Part shown: one piece after another, positions 5,637 to 61,887 of the stretch
Layout of the letters: every line of letters begins with the position of its first letter
How positions within the stretch are numbered: position 1 is the first letter of the stretch
NCBI GenBank assembly: GCA_000165345.1
Contig: CM000434.1
Coordinates: 768,001 to 832,000 of the forward strand
Length of the DNA: 64,000 nt
Direction of reading: 5' to 3'
Notes under the pieces: generated by a model
What the model was told of the DNA's origin: nothing
Database searches by the model: none
What the model saw: only the letters and a program-made list of their open reading frames with translations
Made by a program: the position numbers and the translations under genes

Positions 5637-6261
5637 GTTAAATTTTGACTTTCTCTCCTGGATTTCCTCGAAAATAGCAATTAAATCAGTTGTATTTCTT
5701 CCTCCTTTGAAACTTTTTAATGTTTAAATTACACAATGTCTACTATTACCATGAATAACTCCAGTTTTACCTCCTCTTTTCATTTCATTGCTCAATCCTG
5801 CTCTTGACCAACACAATACTGAGTCTTAATTATTCTATCTAAACCCTTTCTCTATTTCTGCTTCTTTTCCTCCGTTTTCTTCCCCTTTTTTCATTCAAAA
5901 TAAACTAAATTTTTCAGAATGGTAGTTTTTTTAGTCATCTTAAATTAATTCAGAAATTCCAAAAAGCCCGCCTAAATTTTATGTCAATAATAACCAAAAA
6001 TAGGCAACCGGTATATGGGAAAAAAAGAATAAAGTAAAAAAAAAGTTGGGGGGGAAGTGAGGATTAGAATGATTTAGGATATTGAAGAATAAATTAGTCA
6101 AAAGTATTTGGCAGAATATAGGTTTTCTGAAGAATAAGAGAGATTGATTAAGAATTGTAAAAGAAATTATAGAGTTTAATATTACTTGAAAATATGAAAA
6201 AAAATTAGAATTTGCATGCAAAGCCCGCCAAAACATAAATATATTTTAAGGAAGAATTGAA

Positions 6262-12942: not shown

Positions 12943-13856
12943 CCTCTTAATTTAAAAAGAAATTAGACCTGTGAAATCTTCTATAACAGAAATAGCAAGT
13001 TAGTATTTTTTTTTTTTCTGAGTGGAAAAAAAAATCAATTAACTTGTTTCTAAATTAATCCAAACTTTCTCCTTCAAACAAAGTTTCTGTTTTTCTTATT
13101 TATATTTAATAGAAAACAGAAAATAATTAACCGGTCTTTTTTTCAACCTTATATAATACTTTACTTATATTAAGTTAATATAATAATTAATTAATATTTA
13201 ATTTGAGACAAAACATTTAGTAGACTATTTATTTCAATGAGACAGTATTAATAAATTATTTTTTTTAATTAAAAAAATTAATTATTTGTTTATATATTAA
13301 AACTTTTCTCTATTTATTAATTCCTTTCATTAAATTGTCTCTATTATTACTATTAATACCGGTTCGGTACCCCAATTATGGCGCCACAATGTTCCCGCCA
13401 CATCGTGTGCTACATTATTTAAGAAGAAAATAATGGAAAAAAAAGGAGAAAAAAGGAAATGGAAAGAGAATAACAGAGCAAAATCAGAAATAATTATGTT
13501 TATATTAGGAGATGATTAATTTGATTTCTAGAATGGAAATAATTTGTTGTTTGTGCTTTGTATCGAATATAAGAGGGGAGAGGTGCATTGCATGCATTTT
13601 GAGATCTTGAAAAATAATTTATTTGAACAAATTATTTTTCATTATTGTTTTTTTTCTTTTCTTTCTCTTTTATTGTAGAATTTGGAAAAAAAGTAATTAG
13701 TAAGTTCATATATCTTTTAAAATATAGTATTTTTGGGATTATCTGTACTATTCTTTTAAAATAAGGAAAGAATATATTGTAGCAGGAGTAATCCTGGAAT
13801 GGTTTGTATTATTTCTATTGAGATGTTTGGGATTAAGTTTGGAGGAAATAAAAGTA

Positions 13857-16681: not shown

Positions 16682-17223
16682 ATATAAAATGCATGAAATT
16701 CTTTTTTTACTATGATCTTTTTCTTTTTTCCACTTACTCTGGTGAGTTTTCTCTAATTTCTCTTTCTATTGGTCCTGGACTCCAACTCATTTCTCTTTTT
16801 TTACTTTTTTTTTCTTTTATTTTTCCTTTGAATCTTTAATATTCAATTTTTTTAAGTTATTGCATTTTTATGCATATTCACCCATTCCCCCCTTTATTGT
16901 CCTCTATACCGGTGTTTACCGTTATTTTTTTTTGTGGACAAAAAAAGTGAGCGGGAAACATCGAACGCCGGTATATAAATATTAAAGCATTAAAAAAAAA
17001 AATATTTTGATTAGTCATTTTTGACAGGAAGAACTTTGTATATTTTTTTTTTCCTCAAAAGTTTTAAATTGAGGAAAATATAAATTTATATTCAAAGTAC
17101 AAAGAAGCCTGTACTCTGATACCATAGGATATAGTCGAAGCAATAAACATTACATTAATAAAGGAGTGAGGAGGGTTTAGAAAATTACAAAATTACTACA
17201 CAATTTAAGCAAGTCAGAAGGCA

Positions 17224-20514: not shown

Positions 20515-20612
20515 TTGTTTGCATGCACTAAAAGTTGTTCTTGCATGTGCTTGTCCACATGCTGACACGTGTACTATGTTTTCTTATACCGGCATTTGCA
20601 TGCACGCACTTG
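20515..20612. promoter_or_regulatory. GCATGC(A)-box cluster in the 1.07-kb divergent region between eRF1 (-) and PI4K (+)
   Basis: TTTGCATGCAC, TTGCATGTGC and TTTGCATGCACGCAC lie within 100 nt. A TGGCGCG (20381) and a TATACCGG (20586) sit nearby. GCATGC-type boxes are described as over-represented Cryptosporidium upstream motifs (G-box/AP2-like). Confidence 0.45.
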
Positions 20613-21248
20613 TGTATGAAGAAAAAAAATTATGACACGTATCAAAATAATTTACTAAAAATAAAAATTAAAGTGTGAATAGTTTGTGTTTTAGATTTAA
20701 TTTGGTTATTTTTTTCCTTTAAAAATTATATAGTCAATTATTTCAAGAGTTTTATAATTGATTAAGATATGTAGAAAAAAGAGAAATTGTGTAAAGAAGG
20801 AAATAAAGACATTAGAAGAATATAAAAGGGATGATGGCCAGTTCAGAATTATCAATAAGGTAAAATAATTTACGAAATAAAAGTAAGCACATTTCAATAA
20901 ATAGTAAAATATAAATAAAATAAATTTTTTTTTTCTCCAAATAGCATAATATATTTTTTATGCCTTTTAAGAGGAAGAACTTTATATGGAGTGTGGGGGG
21001 AAGATCAAAAAATATGCTCTGAAAAAAAGAAAAAATTGAATTAAGAAAAAATTATTATAAAACCAGTCAAATAAATAAAAATACATGAAATAAATATAAT
21101 TCCAGAATAATATTAGTAATTAGAAACTTTTTAAGTCAAACTATTGACTCACAGATATATGATGATCATACAGCAATTGGCTATATGTGAAAACTATTAG
21201 AGTAAACTTAATATTAATTTCATTTTAAGAACTCTATGAAAATCCAAA

Positions 21249-34202: not shown

Positions 34203-34816
34203 TAATACCACAACTAATGAGCACTAATTTATTAGTAATAGTTCCTGAAAAGGAAATGTAGGAGTAGCAAGAAAGAGAAAAATTGGAAATAGACTTTAAG
34301 AACTATTTACATTCAAGTATTCCCACACACATACACACACAAAGTTACTTATTTTTGTTGTTTTCCTTTCTTTTAAGCCACTTTTAATTTACATGCGAAA
34401 GATCTTGAGACGTTAACTTGTTATAAGCTTGACAAGAAACCACACCAATCAAAATTAATTAATTCAAAGATTATAAATTAAATTATTCTTACAGATTTCT
34501 ATTTAATTATCCAAATTTTAATGATTTTTATTTTTTCTATAAATTTTTTTTAATATTAAGTTACCCGTGATTTTTTTCTAGTTGATATGCCCTAAAAACA
34601 CACTTTCCCGCCAAAACATTCGGTACTTAAAAAAAACAAGCCGGTATACAAAAAAAAAAATAACTTTGGAGGAAGAGAGAAGAAATAATAATAATTCAGA
34701 CATAAGTTTTATGAGCTTTGTGTTTTTGGTAAATTTTAAGAAAAGATTTTACTTAAGATACTGACCATAGTGTTATTATTAGCTTTGCTGTATTTATTGG
34801 TATCGGTAATTAGGTG

Positions 34817-38224: not shown

Positions 38225-38435
38225 ATTAATGTGAGATTTTGAAGCAAAGTTTTTCTAAGAATGTATAATTGGAAGAATTAGAAGGAGTTCCTGTCGTCCT
38301 TAAGTCAATTCAGATGGAGATCCTTGATTAATTATATATAAATAATTTTATGTGGTTTATAAGAGAAAGAGATGTTGGATTAAAAAAAAATGGGATTTTT
38401 TTTTTCCAAGTCAAATTGCTGTGCATCATTGCCTA

Positions 38436-38492
38436 TACCGGCGTATTACGAATTACCGGTATAGGAAAATAAATAAATGCCGGTATAGGCAA
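38436..38492. promoter_or_regulatory. Cluster of three CCGGTATAGG elements (one inverted, two direct) in the divergent promoter of 38224 (-) and 38549 (+)
   Basis: CCTATACCGGcg-N13-ACCGGTATAGG-N15-GCCGGTATAGGC. The same 8-10-mer recurs in many other spacers in the window (see findings). Confidence 0.5.
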
Positions 38493-39252: not shown

Positions 39253-40102
39253 TCATTTCCTCTTTCCTCCTTTTCTTCCTTTTCCTCCTCCTTGCTTAGA
39301 TGGTTTATTAGTATTCTTAGTTATCTCAAAGTTATTTGTCTTACTAATATGCTTAGATACCTTCTTATTCTTATTAAGATCAGATTTCTTGGAATTTTCA
39401 GAAAAGTACTTATCAAAAGATTCTTCAATAGAAGCACTATTTTTATGATCACTCTTTTTCCAATTCTCAATTTCCCTCAAATTCTTCTTGGTTTCTTGCT
39501 TTCTAAGTTTCTTCTTCTCTACCTGGATCTTCTTAGTGAACTTTTTCTCAACATATTTTTGTTTTTTAAGTTCAACAGCCTTTATTTTCTGCTCCTGTTT
39601 AAGTAAATCCATCTTAATTTTCTTCATATGTTGGTCTGTTTTAAGCATTTCAGCTAACATATCATCTGGTCTATTCCAGTTTATATTCATCTTTTCCAAA
39701 ATTTCACATCCTTTATTCACATTTCTCAAAGTATTTGAATAAAAGTATGATTCTCTTTTTGTATTATCTTTGTAATCAATCTTTTCCTCATTTCCTACCT
39801 TATCCACTATAGCTAAAGTTTCTATAAAAGGTACATTTTTCATTCCTAATTGAATCCCATAGTCCAAAGCTGAGATCTTTCTCTTTATTCCTTCCTCATC
39901 CAAAACTAATTTATTCCCTATTTTAATTAATGGAATTCAATTAATAAAAATATAAAGTAAAAAACAAGTTATTAAGTAAATTTTCTGTATTAATTTTATT
40001 CCTTTCAGGTATTAAACTAAACTTACCTCTATCAATGCTTATTCTCTCTCCTTGATTATCTTCTAAAACGTGAGTTTCCAGCTCACTGTCAGAATCTGAC
40101 AT
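39253..40102 (-). CDS. EBP2: rRNA-processing protein EBP2 (EBNA1BP2 homologue), 2 exons: 40102-40027 and 39917-39253
   Basis: Exon 2 contains the Ebp2 core (VPFIETL..., RPDDMLAEMLKTDQHMKKIKMDLLKQEQ, K-rich tail). The upstream exon MSDSDSELETHVLEDNQGERISIDR ends at a GTAAGT donor (minus strand, 40026-40021). A TAG acceptor at 39920-39918 joins it in frame (phase 1) to the ORF listed as starting at 39903 (TTG). Confidence 0.7.
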
Positions 40103-41473
40103 CCTTGCCTTTAAGTTTTCTCTTATCTATTTAATACTTAAAGGAGACAAAAAATTTATCTAAATAAAAAATAACAAGTTTATCAGCAAGTTCTACTCTG
40201 CTTGTATACTTGTTTTTTATTTTCTTTTAAATTCACACCCTCTTTTACTAATTAGTAATATTTCCTATTCACTTTTTTACCCTTTTTTTGTAAAGCCAAC
40301 AATGTCACAAACGACATTTGGCGCGAGCGCCATGATGCATAATGCCGGTATAGATACCTTTTAAGTGTAAAATAGGCAAGAAAAAAAAACAAAAATTTGT
40401 ATTTAATAAATAAATATTTATATATATATATATATATGTATATATAAATATACACAAAATAAATAAGGGATTAAATATAATTCTTGAAATTTCCTCTATT
40501 TCCCCTTTATTATTTTATACTTTTAAATACCAATTTCTCAAACTGGAAAATATTGGTTTAAATTTAGGTGAATAAATCACTAATTCTCACTTTATTGAAT
40601 AGGAATTAGATGATATTTGATTTTTTTATAGATTTATTAAGGAAAAATATTATTAAACATCTTCCTTTGAAATAGAAATGAATAGCAGATATTTTCAGTG
40701 TATTGTCTAAAGTTTCTTAATATCGTTTGGATATTTACGAATTTGAAATATTATTATTCTGAAAATGTGGTTATAACAATATTTTGAATCCAAATTCTGA
40801 ATAGTTTTTCTATAAGAAACAAAATCTTTGTTAACCAAAGAGGTTTTTCTTTTTTAATGTAAATGCAAAGAAGAAAAATAGTAATAAAGAAACGATTAAA
40901 GCTGAAATGTTGAACAATAGTTAATATCTTTGATATAATTCATTTTGTAATTATATTCAACAAATTCAGTATCTTGCTTTTAAGTATTCAACGAATATCT
41001 TGTAATGTTACCGACGTAATAAGTATTGATTGCTTATTAATAATGATTAATAAAGTGCTTCCAAACAATTTTTTTTAATCGTTTAACAATATTATTGAAT
41101 GAGTAGTTGATTTAACTGTTTGTATTGAAAAATCTTTAGATGGTAATTCCTCTACTCTTATTATTTTGTTTATATTATTAAAAACTCAAATTACATCTTT
41201 TCCCATTGTTTGACAGAAATTTTTCAATGGAATTCAAGACCATATAATATTAAATAACGTAGGTGTTTCCATTTCTTAGGTTTGAATTTTCCTTTAAACA
41301 ATATTACTACTGAAGTATTATTTTCTTTTCCAATGAATTTAAGCGTTTCATGTTGGATCTTGATCCAATAATTTACATATTTATTATCATTACGATATCT
41401 GATAATTGTGCATTAGTGTTAATAACACTCAAGCTATTCTTGTAAGCAGTATTATGTTTCGAAATAGTCTCAC

Positions 41474-55896: not shown

Positions 55897-56879
55897 TTGA
55901 AAGAACTTTGGAAATTTTATATAAACCCCCTTTTACCATTTATTTAATGTCAAAGTTGGTTATTTTATTTTTAATTATTTTTCTTCAAGTCTTGTTCACA
56001 TCTTTATTTTCAAAATTCACGCGCAAACTTGGCGCCATTTTCATATTAGCAAATCCAGTCAATTCGGGATTTTCTTGCGATATTATTAATAAATAAGTTA
56101 ATTAATATAAAAAATTTAATTAATTTCGAATTTGTTTCCCCTCACCAAGTTGACGATAAATTATTATAAATATTAATATTTGATTTTTTTATTAGTTTCG
56201 TTTAAATAATGTATTGTTTAATTTGAAAATGAATATATATTTAAATATATGTTTATTTATGTATATATTTATTATATGACATTAATTATATAATATATAT
56301 AATTTAAATATATATATATAATTAATGTATAAATATTACTATGTATATATTATTATATTAATATAAATTAATATTTATATAAAATATTATATATCTAATA
56401 TATACATATATATATTTAAATTATATTATTCCGTATATTGTACTTAATTAAATAAGGCTTCATATAACAAATTACCAGTGTTAAATCATATGTTATCAAA
56501 TAAACTTGTTTCTTTTTAATCTATTAGATGTTGGTTTCATATTAAATTTCCAATCTTTGTCTGCAATATTTAGCTCTTTTAGCTCTTGTCTTTTTATGAT
56601 TAATTAAGATGAAAAATAATTCAGAGTTCTCTACTTCTTTGCCTCCAAACTTGTAAATTCCTAGAAAAAAATCAAAAACTTCCAGGCAAATGCACTGAAA
56701 AGGATTTTTTTTCCTTAATAAAATTCTCAAATTATTGGAAGTTTCGCCGGTATAGGAAATTTTTGAAATTGCATGCATGTGGCATCATATGCAATGGTTG
56801 ATTTATCTGCTGAACTCATTAAAAAAAAAAAAAAAGAAAAATGAAAATGGGGTTGAAATTTCCAAATTTTTTAAATTAT

Positions 56880-60171: not shown

Positions 60172-60766
60172 TTTTCCTTAGTTTTTATAGCTTAAATTAT
60201 CATGAATTATCTTTCGTATATTATTAACTTAATATTTTTATTATTGCTGTTATTATTTTAAATTTAACACGTAATTAATAATTACATGTGGATGACCGGT
60301 ATATGCAAGTAAAAATAAAAATTGCATGCAAAAAACGGTATGTGGAAATATGAATGCATTGTAAATATGAGTAAAAATTAAAGTTACGTGTATTATTAAT
60401 TTAATTTTTTGAATATATTTAAAAAATCCTGATGATTGCGATTTTTTTTTGCTTTAAATTAATAGAACAAGTTAAAAGCAGGAATATCAAGTGAGTACAA
60501 AACAAAGTTTATATTTAGTTAAAATGAAAATCATAAATGGTAAAATCCAAAATTACAAAAACATTTTTTTCTCCGTAAAAATTAAAATAATAACATCAAT
60601 TTAATGATATGAAAAATCTTGTCAAATAAAAGTAAAAATGACATTAACCATATATAAAATATTACCGCTAAAAAAGCTTAATTAAAAGTTAATGCTATTT
60701 TTATGTTTTGAATTAAATAAAGATTAAAGATTTGAAAAGATTTCTCAAAATTGAAATATCAAATTC

Positions 60767-61887
60767 ATGGAGGGATCTAATAATGAAGTTCTAATTTCCC
60801 TTGGGATTGAGTCAAGCGCAAACAAGGTAGGAGTCGGAATAGTAACATCTAAAGGAGAAATCTTGGCAAATGAAAAAATGACATTTGTGGGACCACCTGT
60901 AAGTTTGAATGAAAATAATATTGAATAATCCTTATCTTTAACTTTAATTACTTTAATCAATTTTAGGGCTCTGGATTTTTACCCAGAGAAACTGCAGAAT
61001 TTCATAGAAATAATATATTGCATTTGGTTAAACAGGCTTTAGAAAAATCCGGAATAAATAAGAATTCAATAACAATTATTTCATTTACACAAGGACCAGG
61101 AATGGGTGCACCTTTAGCGGTTGGAGCTCTAGTTGCAAGAATGTTGAGCATGCTTTGGTCAAAACCTTTAATCGGAGTAAATCATTGCGTTGCTCACATA
61201 GAAATGGGAAGACTCGTAACTAAAGTTGAAAATCCTATAGTACTATATGCGTCAGGAGGAAACACTCAAATAATAGGTTATGCCAACAAAAGATACAAAA
61301 TTTTAGGTGAAACTTTGGATATTGCAATCGGGAACTGCATTGATAGATTTGCTAGAGTTATGAAACTTGACAATTATCCTGCAGCAGGATACCATATTGA
61401 ACAAATGGCAAAAAAAGGAAAGAATTTAATTTCACTTCCTTATGTTGTTAAAGGCATGGATTTATCATTTTCCGGAATTCTAACTTTTGGAGAAGAACTA
61501 ATAGCAGAGAAACAAAAAGAATTTAATAATGATGAACAAAAATTACAATCTTTTTATCAAGATTTCTGCTTTTCTTTGCAAGAGACCCTTTTTGCAATGT
61601 TAATTGAAGTTACAGAAAGAGCAATCAGTCTATTAAACTCAGATTCAATCTTACTAGTCGGAGGTGTTGGATGCAATTTAAGGTTGATTGAAATGATGGA
61701 ACAAATGGCAAAGGATAGAGGAGCTATTGTATGTAGCATGGATGATAGTTATTGCATTGATAACGGAGCAATGATTGCTCATACAGGATTATTAGCATAC
61801 CAAAAAAATTTCATCACAAAAGTGGAAGAGTCTGCAGTATCTCAAAGATTTAGAACTGATCAAGTTGAGATATTATGGAGAGAGTGA
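60767..61887 (+). CDS. KAE1: tRNA N6-adenosine threonylcarbamoyltransferase Kae1/OSGEP, 2 exons: 60767-60898 and 60967-61887
   Basis: Exon 1 (MEGSNNEVLISLGIESSANKVGVGIVTSKGEILANEKMTFVGPP) ends at a GTAAGT donor (60899). A 68-nt intron and a TTTTAG acceptor (60966) continue in phase 0 to GSGFLPRETAEFHR...SFTQGPGMGAPL...GVNHCVAHIEMGR. This is collinear with the Kae1 KEOPS subunit (compare VALGIEGSANKLGVG...PPGTGFLP...TKGPGMGAPL...GVNHCIGHIEMGR). Confidence 0.85.

Follow-up and report, generated by a model that had tools for sequence, protein, structure and literature searches.

The genome of Cryptosporidium spans 9 Mb, has very short spacers and encodes very few recognisable transcription factors, a small and little-understood set. 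Bankier et al., in the original chromosome 6 paper of 2003, reportedly described two abundant motifs, one of the TGCATGCA type and one of the E2F type. Promoter motif catalogues for the genus list about six families, namely AP2_1 (TGCATGCA), AP2_2 (GCACAC), the G-box (G.GGGG), the E2F site ([A/T][C/G]GCGC[G/C][A/T]), GAGA and the CAAT-box (PMC12246861). Candidate binders are available only for the ApiAP2 and E2F/DP classes.

We analyzed the eight-base word CCGGTATA in a 64-kb stretch of C. parvum chromosome 6 (the window) and compared it with these catalogues. We found no counterpart of the word or its palindromic form TACCGGTA among the 25 IUPAC consensuses tabulated by Oberstaller et al. (2013; PMC3734150, Table 1), nor among the six families (Table 3) or ApiAP2 microarray motifs (Table 4) of a 2025 review (PMC12246861). 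No consensus in these three tables is alike, in agreement with the preliminary description of this DNA, which could not assign the word to any of the named Cryptosporidium motifs. Searches for the strings CCGG, GGTA and TACC in the text of five Cryptosporidium motif papers were negative, and full-text literature searches combining the word with the genus name retrieved primer sequences only. Absent from these catalogues, frequent in the sampled promoter regions and retained at the same promoters in other Cryptosporidium species (see below), CCGGTATA is most likely the binding site of a further transcription factor.

Abundance and form of the word

Counting both strands, we found 11 exact matches to CCGGTATA/TATACCGG in the window. 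Dinucleotide-preserving shuffles yielded a mean of 0.19 copies and a maximum of two, with none of 100 shuffles reaching 11, and a second-order Markov model of the intergenic sequence likewise predicted 0.19 (P = 3e-16). Open reading frames of at least 100 aa occupy 72% of the window, and all 11 copies lie outside them. The preliminary description had therefore been right about the number of copies (at least 11, with about 0.2 expected by chance) and about their intergenic location; its sites are real, but its positions were 1 to 10 bp off. Only TGCATGCA and the E2F site rank ahead of CCGGTATA among the over-represented intergenic 8-mer families of the window. The 19.6 kb of C. parvum sequence flanking the window contain three further copies where 0.04 were expected, all three intergenic, and in this chromosome 6 stretch roughly one in three sampled promoter regions carries the word. 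Our sample is a single 84-kb region of chromosome 6 with its orthologues, from which a genome-wide copy number above 1,000 is an extrapolation. A small-RNA gene promoter was ruled out as the identity of the word, since searches of the window with Rfam (gathering threshold) and ARAGORN gave no match.

The bases next to the word are constrained in the 14 C. parvum copies to which our form statistics refer: all 14 have a purine at -1 and at +2, and 12 have G or T at +1. The extended C. parvum consensus is RCCGGTATAKRnA; longer forms proposed at the outset, CCGGTATAGG and CGCCGGTATA, turned out to be present at only four and three of the 11 sites. One-mismatch variants show no spacer enrichment (four intergenic and 12 coding in the window), so the 8-mer is sharply defined. 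When 28 copies were aligned with 25 bp on each side, information was confined to about -4 to +4 around the word, and because the flanks are unrelated, CCGGTATA is not a dispersed repeat.

Four of the 14 C. parvum copies take the palindromic form TACCGGTA. At the loci of the gastric species C. muris and C. andersoni, no intergenic word is more enriched than TACCGGTA/ACCGGTA, the spacers containing five occurrences of TACCGGTA (0.04 expected) and 13 of ACCGGTA (0.20 expected). CCGGTA is constant in C. felis and the gastric species, and positions 7 and 8 vary (CCGGTAGA, CCGGTAAA, CCGGTATG and CCGGTACA). From these sequences we take the palindrome to be the older, ancestral form of CCGGTATA, the word of C. 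parvum and C. ubiquitum having presumably become asymmetric, (Y)RCCGGTATAKR. A second motif, GGTACC/CGGTAC, adjoins some C. felis and C. ryanae copies and is not enriched in C. parvum spacers.

Sites in the window and their orthologues

The copy at 6008..6015 (plus strand) lies 372 bp 5' of the ATG of RPC1 (cgd6_3290) and 247 bp beyond the stop codon of a Cwc24-like zf-CCCH gene, and points away from RPC1. The orthologous C. andersoni spacer has an exact copy that is likewise directed away from RPC1, and the aligned C. ubiquitum position reads CCGGTACT. An outward-facing pair occupies the unk322/WDR12 divergent spacer, its left half (16905..16912, minus strand) 254 bp from the unk322 ATG and its right half (16968..16975, plus strand) 256 bp 5' of the ATG of the Ytm1-like WDR12. 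The left half is exact at the aligned C. ubiquitum position and the right half is also exact in that species; the orthologous C. felis spacer has one exact copy, and the C. andersoni WDR12 spacer combines one exact copy with three TACCGGTA-type copies within 45 bp. In the eRF1/PI4K divergent spacer the word (20585..20592, minus strand) adjoins TGCATGCA, 402 bp from the eRF1 ATG. C. ubiquitum keeps this copy unchanged at 408 bp from the eRF1 start codon, along with the neighbouring TGCATGCA and ATAGTACACGTGT blocks, and the C. andersoni counterpart is CCGGTCTA. The copy at 34641..34648 (plus strand), in the GCP/eIF2B-epsilon divergent spacer and 176 bp 5' of the eIF2B-epsilon ATG, is exact in the orthologous C. 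muris spacer, reads CCGGTATG in C. felis and is gone from C. ubiquitum.

Upstream of EBP2, whose exon 1 spans 39941-40102 on the minus strand, the word (40345..40352, plus strand) sits 243 bp 5' of the true ATG inside a compact module, GGCGCGAGCGCC-ATGATGCAT-AATG-CCGGTATA; the equivalent C. ubiquitum position is CCGGTATT. The copy at 56747..56754 (plus strand), 851 bp 5' of the cgd6_3520 ATG and 133 bp beyond the stop codon of a 629-aa gene, is exact in C. ubiquitum, 96 bp beyond the orthologous stop codon and with its orientation unchanged. At 60296..60303 (plus strand) the word falls 125 bp beyond the RNase PH stop codon and 471 bp 5' of the ATG (60767) of Kae1, a gene that contains an intron; it is exact in C. 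ubiquitum and C. ryanae, the adjoining GCAAGT is also kept, and C. felis has CTGGTATA and CCGGTATG. The only tRNA nearby, tRNA-Gln, lies past the window end. A decayed copy, CCGATATA (44257..44264, minus strand), was found in the spacer of a 780-aa and a 243-aa gene, whose orthologues in C. ubiquitum, C. felis and C. ryanae are separated by spacers with one exact CCGGTATA each; its flanks agree between species (C. ubiquitum ...aaacgCCGGTATAtgaaagtat and C. parvum ...aaactCCGATATAtgaaagtat). The variant previously noted at RPL32 does exist, but it is an inexact copy at a different position, the one-mismatch CCGGTATT at 13355..13362 (minus strand) in the RPL32/unk469 divergent spacer, and its status as a site is uncertain.

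The divergent spacer of 324 bp that separates the 2xRRM gene (cgd6_3430) from cgd6_3440, where a triple, partly palindromic cluster had been described, contains three copies. We recovered both features. Copy 1 (38434..38441, minus strand) belongs to the left arm TTGCCTATACCGGC, and copy 3 (38480..38487, plus strand), 69 bp 5' of the cgd6_3440 ATG, to the right arm GCCGGTATAGGCAA, the two arms making up a perfect 14-nt inverted repeat in the 38434-38487 cluster; copy 2 (38456..38463, plus strand), taken with its two preceding bases, makes the palindrome TACCGGTA at 38454-38461. Copies 1 and 3 are exact at the aligned C. ubiquitum positions. Alignment of this spacer across five species leaves a single stretch of four successive invariant columns, the CCGG of the second core (38456-38459); the first core is kept in every species but C. 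ryanae. The separation of the inverted pair is constant at 22-23 bp in four species. A PDB sequence search with cgd6_3440 gave no hit, and one with the cgd6_3430 RRM protein gave a weak Prp24/PABP-type RRM match. With a length of 60 bp, the triple cluster is a compact bidirectional promoter module that lends itself to reporters in transgenic parasites.

Seven of the 11 sites have TGCAT within 40 bp, and eight have an A8/T8 tract in that range (P = 4e-4 in each case against random spacer positions). The frequent proximity to E2F-type sites claimed earlier did not hold up, as only two of the 11 sites have one within 40 bp (P ~0.2, not significant). Copies in the two-copy divergent promoters face outward, each toward one gene (16905- with 16968+; 38434- with 38456+ and 38480+), and do so in C. 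ubiquitum alike. In tandem spacers the word is directed away from the downstream gene in four of six cases (RPC1, EBP2, cgd6_3520 and the branching enzyme) and often sits 96-250 bp beyond the upstream stop codon, at a great distance from the ATG that follows (56747, 60296 and 6008, the spacer at the glycogen branching enzyme, and C. ubiquitum orthologues). Distances from word to ATG span 69 to 851 bp. Given these mixed results, orientation as a directional signal was dropped as the main explanation.

C. parvum and C. ubiquitum share 95% identity at motif positions, with about 57% identity for whole spacers and 59-73% in aligned columns (13 spacers), and eight of the 11 C. parvum sites are fully conserved. 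Retention at orthologous promoters, which had been suggested as a check on the element, was found in all five other species compared: of 17 intergenic exact copies in C. ubiquitum, C. felis, C. muris, C. andersoni and C. ryanae, 14 fall in spacers orthologous to those that carry the word in C. parvum. Such spacers account for 37% of all spacer sequence (P = 1.7e-4 for this concentration), and the remaining three copies share one spacer, that in which the C. parvum copy is decayed by one base. Annotated spacers contain nine copies in C. ubiquitum (0.14 expected), two in C. muris (0.04) and two in C. andersoni (0.05); C. felis and C. ryanae, which have two exact copies each, show weaker enrichment and patchy retention. 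CCGGTATA is a phylogenetic footprint under purifying selection, retained genus-wide at orthologous promoters.

Possible functions of the word

Inferring function from sequence statistics and conservation alone, we think it likely that CCGGTATA is the core of a putative protein-binding site of about 12 bp in Cryptosporidium RNA polymerase II promoter regions. One sequence-specific DNA-binding protein would recognise the CCGGTA core throughout the genus and, given the palindromic form in the gastric species, may bind TACCGGTA as a dimer. Binding would take place in the central part of promoter-containing spacers, at sites that stand singly or in homotypic groups and adjoin TGCAT (ApiAP2-type) sites and poly(dA:dT) tracts. 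Such a factor would probably be an activator or a general promoter-opening factor, with broadly expressed growth genes as its targets, among them those for translation factors, ribosome-biogenesis factors and Pol III. Several published observations count against a binding site of this kind. Motif analysis of sporozoite ATAC-seq data returned only E2F and poly-T in open chromatin (preprint 10.1101/2025.01.17.633476), three de novo expression-cluster searches did not recover CCGGTATA, which is odd if the extrapolated >1,000 copies exist (PMC3734150), and no ApiAP2 domain on protein-binding microarrays is reported for a similar word (PMC12246861, Table 4).

The genes flanking the sites raise the possibility of a ribosome-biogenesis and translation regulon, the hypothesis put forward in the preliminary description; the word would then play the part that PAC/RRPE play in yeast, and a single factor would couple its genes to growth. 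We regard this as possible but tentative, and the link drawn from the flanking genes, about 30 in number, is suggestive at best. Motif-bearing spacers flank WDR12/Ytm1, EBP2, eRF1, eIF2B-epsilon, the Pol III largest subunit RPC1 and Kae1, and the WDR12, RPC1, eIF2B-epsilon and Kae1 promoters keep the word even in distant species. The same spacers, however, serve PI4K, a gamma-tubulin complex protein, DER1, a myotubularin-related protein and glycogen branching enzyme, while RPL32, the exosome RNase PH subunit, Pus10 and the Cwc24-like gene have no exact copy; moreover, the promoter motif reported for C. parvum ribosomal-protein genes is a different word, (A/T/C)GAGAC(A/G) (PMC11078545). For a look-up in published expression clusters we mapped the window genes to cgd6_3290-3560. 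eIF2B-epsilon belongs to the ribosomal-protein-rich cluster 6, EBP2 is grouped with an Mrd1-like protein, and cgd6_3440 with a nucleolar GU2 helicase (Oberstaller et al., Table S2), yet the motif-adjacent genes among those listed scatter over clusters 6, 46, 100, 112 and 114 of 200. These clusters are very fine-grained, too much so for the look-up to be informative about a regulon, and some 30 genes are too few for an enrichment test.

As a boundary or roadblock, the word would bind a general regulatory factor comparable to yeast Reb1 or Abf1, would open nucleosome-free regions and insulate closely packed genes from read-through, and would serve no specific gene set. Such a role would suit a long invariant word that occurs in either orientation in roughly a third of promoter-bearing spacers, with poly(dA:dT) tracts close by and, in tandem spacers, often a position soon after the upstream stop codon. 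We consider it somewhat doubtful; it is a sub-type of the binding-site explanation and no exclusive alternative to it, and the likeness to the Reb1 site is only partial. The ending of the word in TATA after a GC clamp, the A-rich sequence 3' of it, and the outward-facing copies in both two-copy divergent promoters, C. ubiquitum included, would all suit a directional core-promoter element instead, a GC-anchored, BRE-plus-TATA-like box that would position TBP/TFIIB and set the transcription start about 30 bp downstream, in which case copies aimed at a neighbour's 3' end would drive antisense transcripts. This is improbable, as the orientation disagrees with the downstream gene in four of the six tandem-spacer cases and the distance to the ATG is as variable as described above. 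The prediction from a TATA box is in fact reversed, because CCGGTA is constant, the final TA is variable and the likely ancestor is palindromic.

An element acting at the RNA level, in the 5'-UTR, on the translation or stability of the flanking mRNAs would account for the several copies that lie 69-260 nt 5' of an ATG on the sense strand. We judge it very unlikely: both orientations occur, four tandem-spacer copies are antisense to the sole gene they could precede, the likely ancestral form is a DNA palindrome, and the copies at 38434-38441 and 38456-38463 face outward only 14 bp apart, leaving no space for two start sites. Finally, a chance cluster, or a functionless remnant of a dispersed repeat or mobile element, might be suspected from the sampling of a single genomic region, but hardly merits consideration. 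None of 100 shuffles reached even three copies, and the flanks, alike over no more than about two bases per side, the replication in the sequence outside the window and the retention at orthologous positions amid diverging spacer refute it. The preliminary description had named a dispersed repeat as one outcome that would overturn its promoter-restricted, GC-containing cis-element; with every copy in the window intergenic, that element stands.

Comparison with known promoter elements

Like the catalogued Cryptosporidium motifs, CCGGTATA is a short word strongly over-represented in compact spacers, ranking behind TGCATGCA and E2F within the window. It differs from AP2_1, the G-box and E2F in that those motifs have a candidate binding factor and CCGGTATA has none. 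With a range from intestinal to gastric species, it would add a major piece to the Cryptosporidium promoter code and would point to an orphan factor, which could be a Myb protein, a C2H2 zinc finger or an untyped ApiAP2; an oligonucleotide carrying the word could be used to retrieve it.

In its layout the word resembles the yeast Reb1, Abf1 and Rap1 sites and the PAC and RRPE elements, which are likewise sharp words of 8-12 bp found in many housekeeping promoters in either orientation. Poly(dA:dT) is adjacent in both cases, the sites sometimes lie just beyond a neighbour's 3' end, and ribosome-biogenesis genes are among the neighbours. The yeast Reb1 site, TTACCCGG, bears a partial likeness to TATACCGG; otherwise the sequences of the yeast general regulatory factor sites differ from the Cryptosporidium word, and no Reb1-type Myb protein is linked to CCGGTATA. 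Grainyhead/CP2 sites, AACCGGTT, have an ACCGGT core and a dimeric palindromic layout, as does the Cryptosporidium word, although their flanking bases are A...T, whereas those in Cryptosporidium are T...A. We know of no Grainyhead/CP2 family in apicomplexans.

Oomycetes and apicomplexans are both members of the SAR supergroup, and a match to our word comes from an orphan promoter palindrome of oomycetes. It has been described as motif-9 in Phytophthora, GTACCGGTA (Seidl et al., 2012; PMC3520976), as M94 in P. infestans, TACCGGTA (Roy et al., 2013; PMC3597505), and as streme-5 in Plasmopara halstedii, ATACCGGTAT (PMC10031896). The core TACCGGTA is common to the oomycete and Cryptosporidium motifs, the oomycete form being (A)TACCGGTA(T). 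The oomycete palindrome lies 5' of 1,284 Phytophthora genes, is promoter-restricted and conserved between species and, as here, has no factor assigned. It tracks infection-stage expression and RXLR effector genes, whereas the Cryptosporidium word accompanies housekeeping genes. That the two share an 8-mer could be a coincidence between distant lineages. More speculatively, and in our view rather unlikely, TACCGGTA/CCGGTATA might be the site of an ancient stramenopile/alveolate DNA-binding protein. In Cryptosporidium the word would then join E2F, TGCATGCA and the G-box as a fourth major promoter code, present at some thousand promoters or more, where its binder would open or insulate the promoters of growth genes in a general way. 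The match raises the question of whether a factor and its site form a pair deeply conserved across the SAR supergroup.

Abundance and sharpness of the word in C. parvum

We counted the 8-mer CCGGTATA and its complement in the window and found exactly 11 copies, in line with the preliminary description's figure of at least 11; its chance estimate of about 0.2 also agrees with dinucleotide-preserving shuffles, which average 0.19 copies with a maximum of 2. All 11 copies fall outside open reading frames, which make up 72% of the window. When intergenic k-mers were ranked without bias under a second-order Markov model, CCGGTATA (P = 3e-16, zero coding copies) was the third family, behind TGCATGCA and TTGGCGCC (E2F). 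Its one-mismatch variants occur at background (4 intergenic versus 12 coding in the window), and the 8-mer is therefore unusually sharp. The 10 kb on either side on the same chromosome, of which 19.6 kb lay outside the stretch first described, served as a replication sample. Those 19.6 kb hold three further exact copies where 0.04 would be expected (P = 9e-6), every one of them intergenic: one in the Myotub/DER1 spacer and the others upstream of a WD40 gene and of the glycogen branching enzyme gene. The density, about one copy per 6 kb, is alike in flanks and window, and extrapolating very roughly from this one chromosomal neighborhood would give more than 1,000 copies per genome.

Aligning the 14 C. 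parvum copies yields the extended consensus RCCGGTATAKRnA, with a purine at -1 and at +2 in all 14, G or T at +1 in 12, A at +4 in 11, and nothing else in common. Inside the RPC1 coding sequence (720-731) lies the perfect palindrome AATACCGGTATT, made of two overlapping CCGGTATT variants; it is the window's only TACCGGTA-type palindrome within a gene and is probably coincidental.

The window corresponds to about positions 765,162-829,161 of CP029785.1 (C. parvum chromosome 6), with the Pol III largest subunit (cgd6_3290) at one end and Pus10 (cgd6_3560) at the other; its proteins match C. parvum entries with 100% identity. The cgd6 gene numbers were checked against the gene descriptions that Oberstaller et al. 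give in their Table S2, and Pfam agrees with the names originally given to RPC1, WDR12 (NLE plus WD40), eRF1, the gamma-tubulin complex protein (GCP), eIF2B-epsilon, EBP2, RPL32 and Kae1. In both EBP2 (39941-40102, minus strand; ATG at 40102) and Kae1 (60767-61101, plus strand; ATG at 60767), a short 5' exon and an intron that are present in the public annotation escape a simple ORF map, so motif-to-ATG distances for these two genes need correction. Neither Rfam nor ARAGORN found RNA genes in the window. The stretch at 46703-48864, 2.1 kb without an ORF of at least 100 amino acids, lies in the window's most AT-rich part (GC 0.23). Between cgd6_3440 and cgd6_3520 the CPATCC locus-tag sequence has one slot more than the genes identified, which suggests that the 39-51 kb region includes one more annotated gene or a non-coding RNA. 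About 160-235 bp past the end of the window, a tRNA-Gln(TTG) gene separates Pus10 from the myotubularin-related gene (L010:12136-12208, the C. parvum flank) and occupies the same syntenic position in C. ubiquitum (L007:4515-4586), C. felis (L008:4479-4550) and C. ryanae (L009:4592-4664). It contains a CCGGTA hexamer (ttgattCCGGTAgcctgg) that is unrelated to the promoter motif and slightly raises spacer CCGGTA counts.

Conservation and form of the site across Cryptosporidium

Syntenic loci of C. ubiquitum, C. felis, C. muris, C. andersoni and C. ryanae were reached via the eIF2B-epsilon, VTC/SPX and 629-aa proteins. In their annotated spacers the exact word is enriched in all five species (observed versus expected: C. 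ubiquitum 9 versus 0.14, C. muris 2 versus 0.04, C. andersoni 2 versus 0.05, C. felis 2 versus 0.17, C. ryanae 2 versus 0.23), with only one coding copy in roughly 168 kb of coding sequence. Conservation at orthologous promoters, proposed earlier as a check, was borne out: these species have 17 exact intergenic copies, 14 of them in spacers orthologous to C. parvum-positive ones, which make up 37% of spacer DNA (binomial P = 1.7e-4). The remaining three share the spacer between the 780-aa and 243-aa genes, where the aligned C. parvum position, 44257, reads CCGATATA, an example of site decay.

Between C. parvum and C. ubiquitum, spacers show 57% identity overall and 59-73% in aligned columns (13 spacers), against 95% at motif positions; 8 of 11 copies are kept base for base. 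Orthologous copies keep their orientation, as common descent would predict. All four species sampled at the WDR12 promoter have the element there, C. andersoni with one exact and three near-exact copies within 45 bp. C. parvum and the gastric species also have it in common at the RPC1 and eIF2B-epsilon promoters, in spacers that are otherwise unalignable. At the eRF1 promoter (20540-20620; L004:1575-1650 in C. ubiquitum), both species keep a module of TGCATGCA, CCGGTATA and ATAGTACACGTGT, the last including the E-box-like palindrome CACGTG.

The triple cluster between cgd6_3430 and cgd6_3440 is partly palindromic, as first described: TTGCCTATACCGGC (38429-38442) and GCCGGTATAGGCAA (38479-38492) form a perfect 14-nt inverted repeat, and the middle copy makes the palindrome TACCGGTA. 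C. ubiquitum retains both the minus/plus/plus layout and the 14-bp gap between copies 1 and 2. Mean column identity in a five-species alignment of this spacer is 44%; the CCGG of the second core (38456-38459) is the only place in it where four successive columns are invariant. The first core, some 22 bp away, persists in every species but C. ryanae.

The site varies in form. [quoted passage not shown] The simplest reading is that an ancestral palindromic site drifted to one strong half-site in the intestinal clade; its binder would therefore perhaps be dimeric.

Other spacer words also differ among species. In the gastric species (L003 and L006) the canonical E2F word GGCGCC is absent from the top intergenic k-mers and TACCGCCA/TGGCGGTA is enriched (3 versus 0.03 expected); gastric-clade promoter vocabulary may differ from that of C. 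parvum. Spacers of C. ryanae (L009 and L012) are enriched for TCTAGCGG/CCGCTAGA (5 versus 0.10), along with GCCGCTAG and TTGCCGCT, 8-mers not seen in C. parvum that together suggest TTTGCCGCTAGA. Likewise not seen in C. parvum is CGAAGCGG, enriched in C. felis (6 versus 0.17; L002, L005 and L008). CGGTACC/GGTACCG is enriched in C. ryanae spacers and CCGGTAC in those of C. felis. A CGGTACT/GGTACT element adjoins the CCGGTATA-type site in the GCP/eIF2B-epsilon spacer of C. parvum (34621-34648), C. muris (L003:9845-9864) and C. felis (L002:9785-9805), at differing spacing.

Promoter context and possible roles

In divergent spacers the copies are central; at unk322/WDR12, for instance, the distances to the two ATGs are 254 and 256 bp. 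Copies in tandem spacers are often found 96-250 bp beyond the stop codon of the upstream gene, with 370-850 bp separating them from the next ATG; there, four of six point away from the downstream gene, and orientation does not track that gene. Within 40 bp, 7 of 11 copies have a TGCAT and 8 of 11 an A8/T8 tract (each P = 4e-4 versus random spacer positions). The adjacency to E2F-type sites noted in the preliminary description did not hold up, such sites being near 2 of 11 copies, an association that is not significant.

The motif is real, highly significant, replicated and conserved in the one chromosomal neighborhood and orthologous loci sampled. This evidence most likely reflects the binding site of a sequence-specific DNA-binding protein, predicted to act in Pol II promoter cores. 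A TATA/BRE-type core promoter element is unlikely, because it is the TA end that varies between species, the ancestral form appears palindromic, and orientation does not follow the direction of transcription. Orientation that is mixed relative to transcription, together with the mere 14 bp separating the cluster's outward-facing copies, makes an RNA-level element unlikely too.

As to what a bound protein would do, the ribosome-biogenesis regulon first proposed is possible but unproven: neighbors include WDR12, EBP2, eRF1, eIF2B-epsilon, RPC1 and Kae1, but also PI4K, the gamma-tubulin complex protein, DER1, the myotubularin-related protein and branching enzyme, while RPL32, RNase PH, Pus10 and a Cwc24-like gene lack an exact copy. 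Any specific regulon is hypothetical. By analogy with Reb1/Abf1, a general role in opening promoters or marking boundaries would fit the word's abundance and sharpness, its proximity to poly(dA:dT) tracts and its location just beyond 3' ends.

The 18 C. parvum ApiAP2 proteins on protein-binding microarrays recognize TGCAT-type, CACACA/GTGTGT-type, G-box, GCGTGCA or AAAA sequences, or nothing (PMC12246861, Table 4; PMC4117751), and E2F/DP sites differ from CCGGTATA. Candidate binders would include the uncharacterized DNA-binding Mybs cgd6_4510, cgd3_2510, cgd8_4840 and cgd3_1120, C2H2 zinc fingers, and ApiAP2 domains without array signal.

Comparison with published motifs

CCGGTATA resembles neither any of the 25 IUPAC consensus motifs of Oberstaller et al. 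2013 nor any of the six motif families in a 2025 review (PMC12246861). Nor does it appear among the motifs spelled out as text in Mullapudi 2007, Cohn 2010, the 2014 ApiAP2 paper, a 2024 PLoS Pathogens promoter analysis or a 2025 ATAC-seq preprint. As far as checked, CCGGTATA would be a new promoter transcription-factor motif, outside the Cryptosporidium motif catalogues; that neither earlier genome-wide motif searches nor an ATAC-seq analysis reported it is puzzling.

Among published motifs the nearest counterpart is an orphan palindrome in oomycete promoters, with a core that matches the gastric-species form exactly: Phytophthora motif-9, GTACCGGTA, which precedes 1,284 genes (PMC3520976); P. 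infestans M94, which is TACCGGTA (PMC3597505); and the Plasmopara halstedii promoter motif ATACCGGTAT (PMC10031896). Like the Cryptosporidium word, the oomycete palindrome has no factor assigned; it differs in its gene associations, which are with infection-stage and RXLR effector genes.
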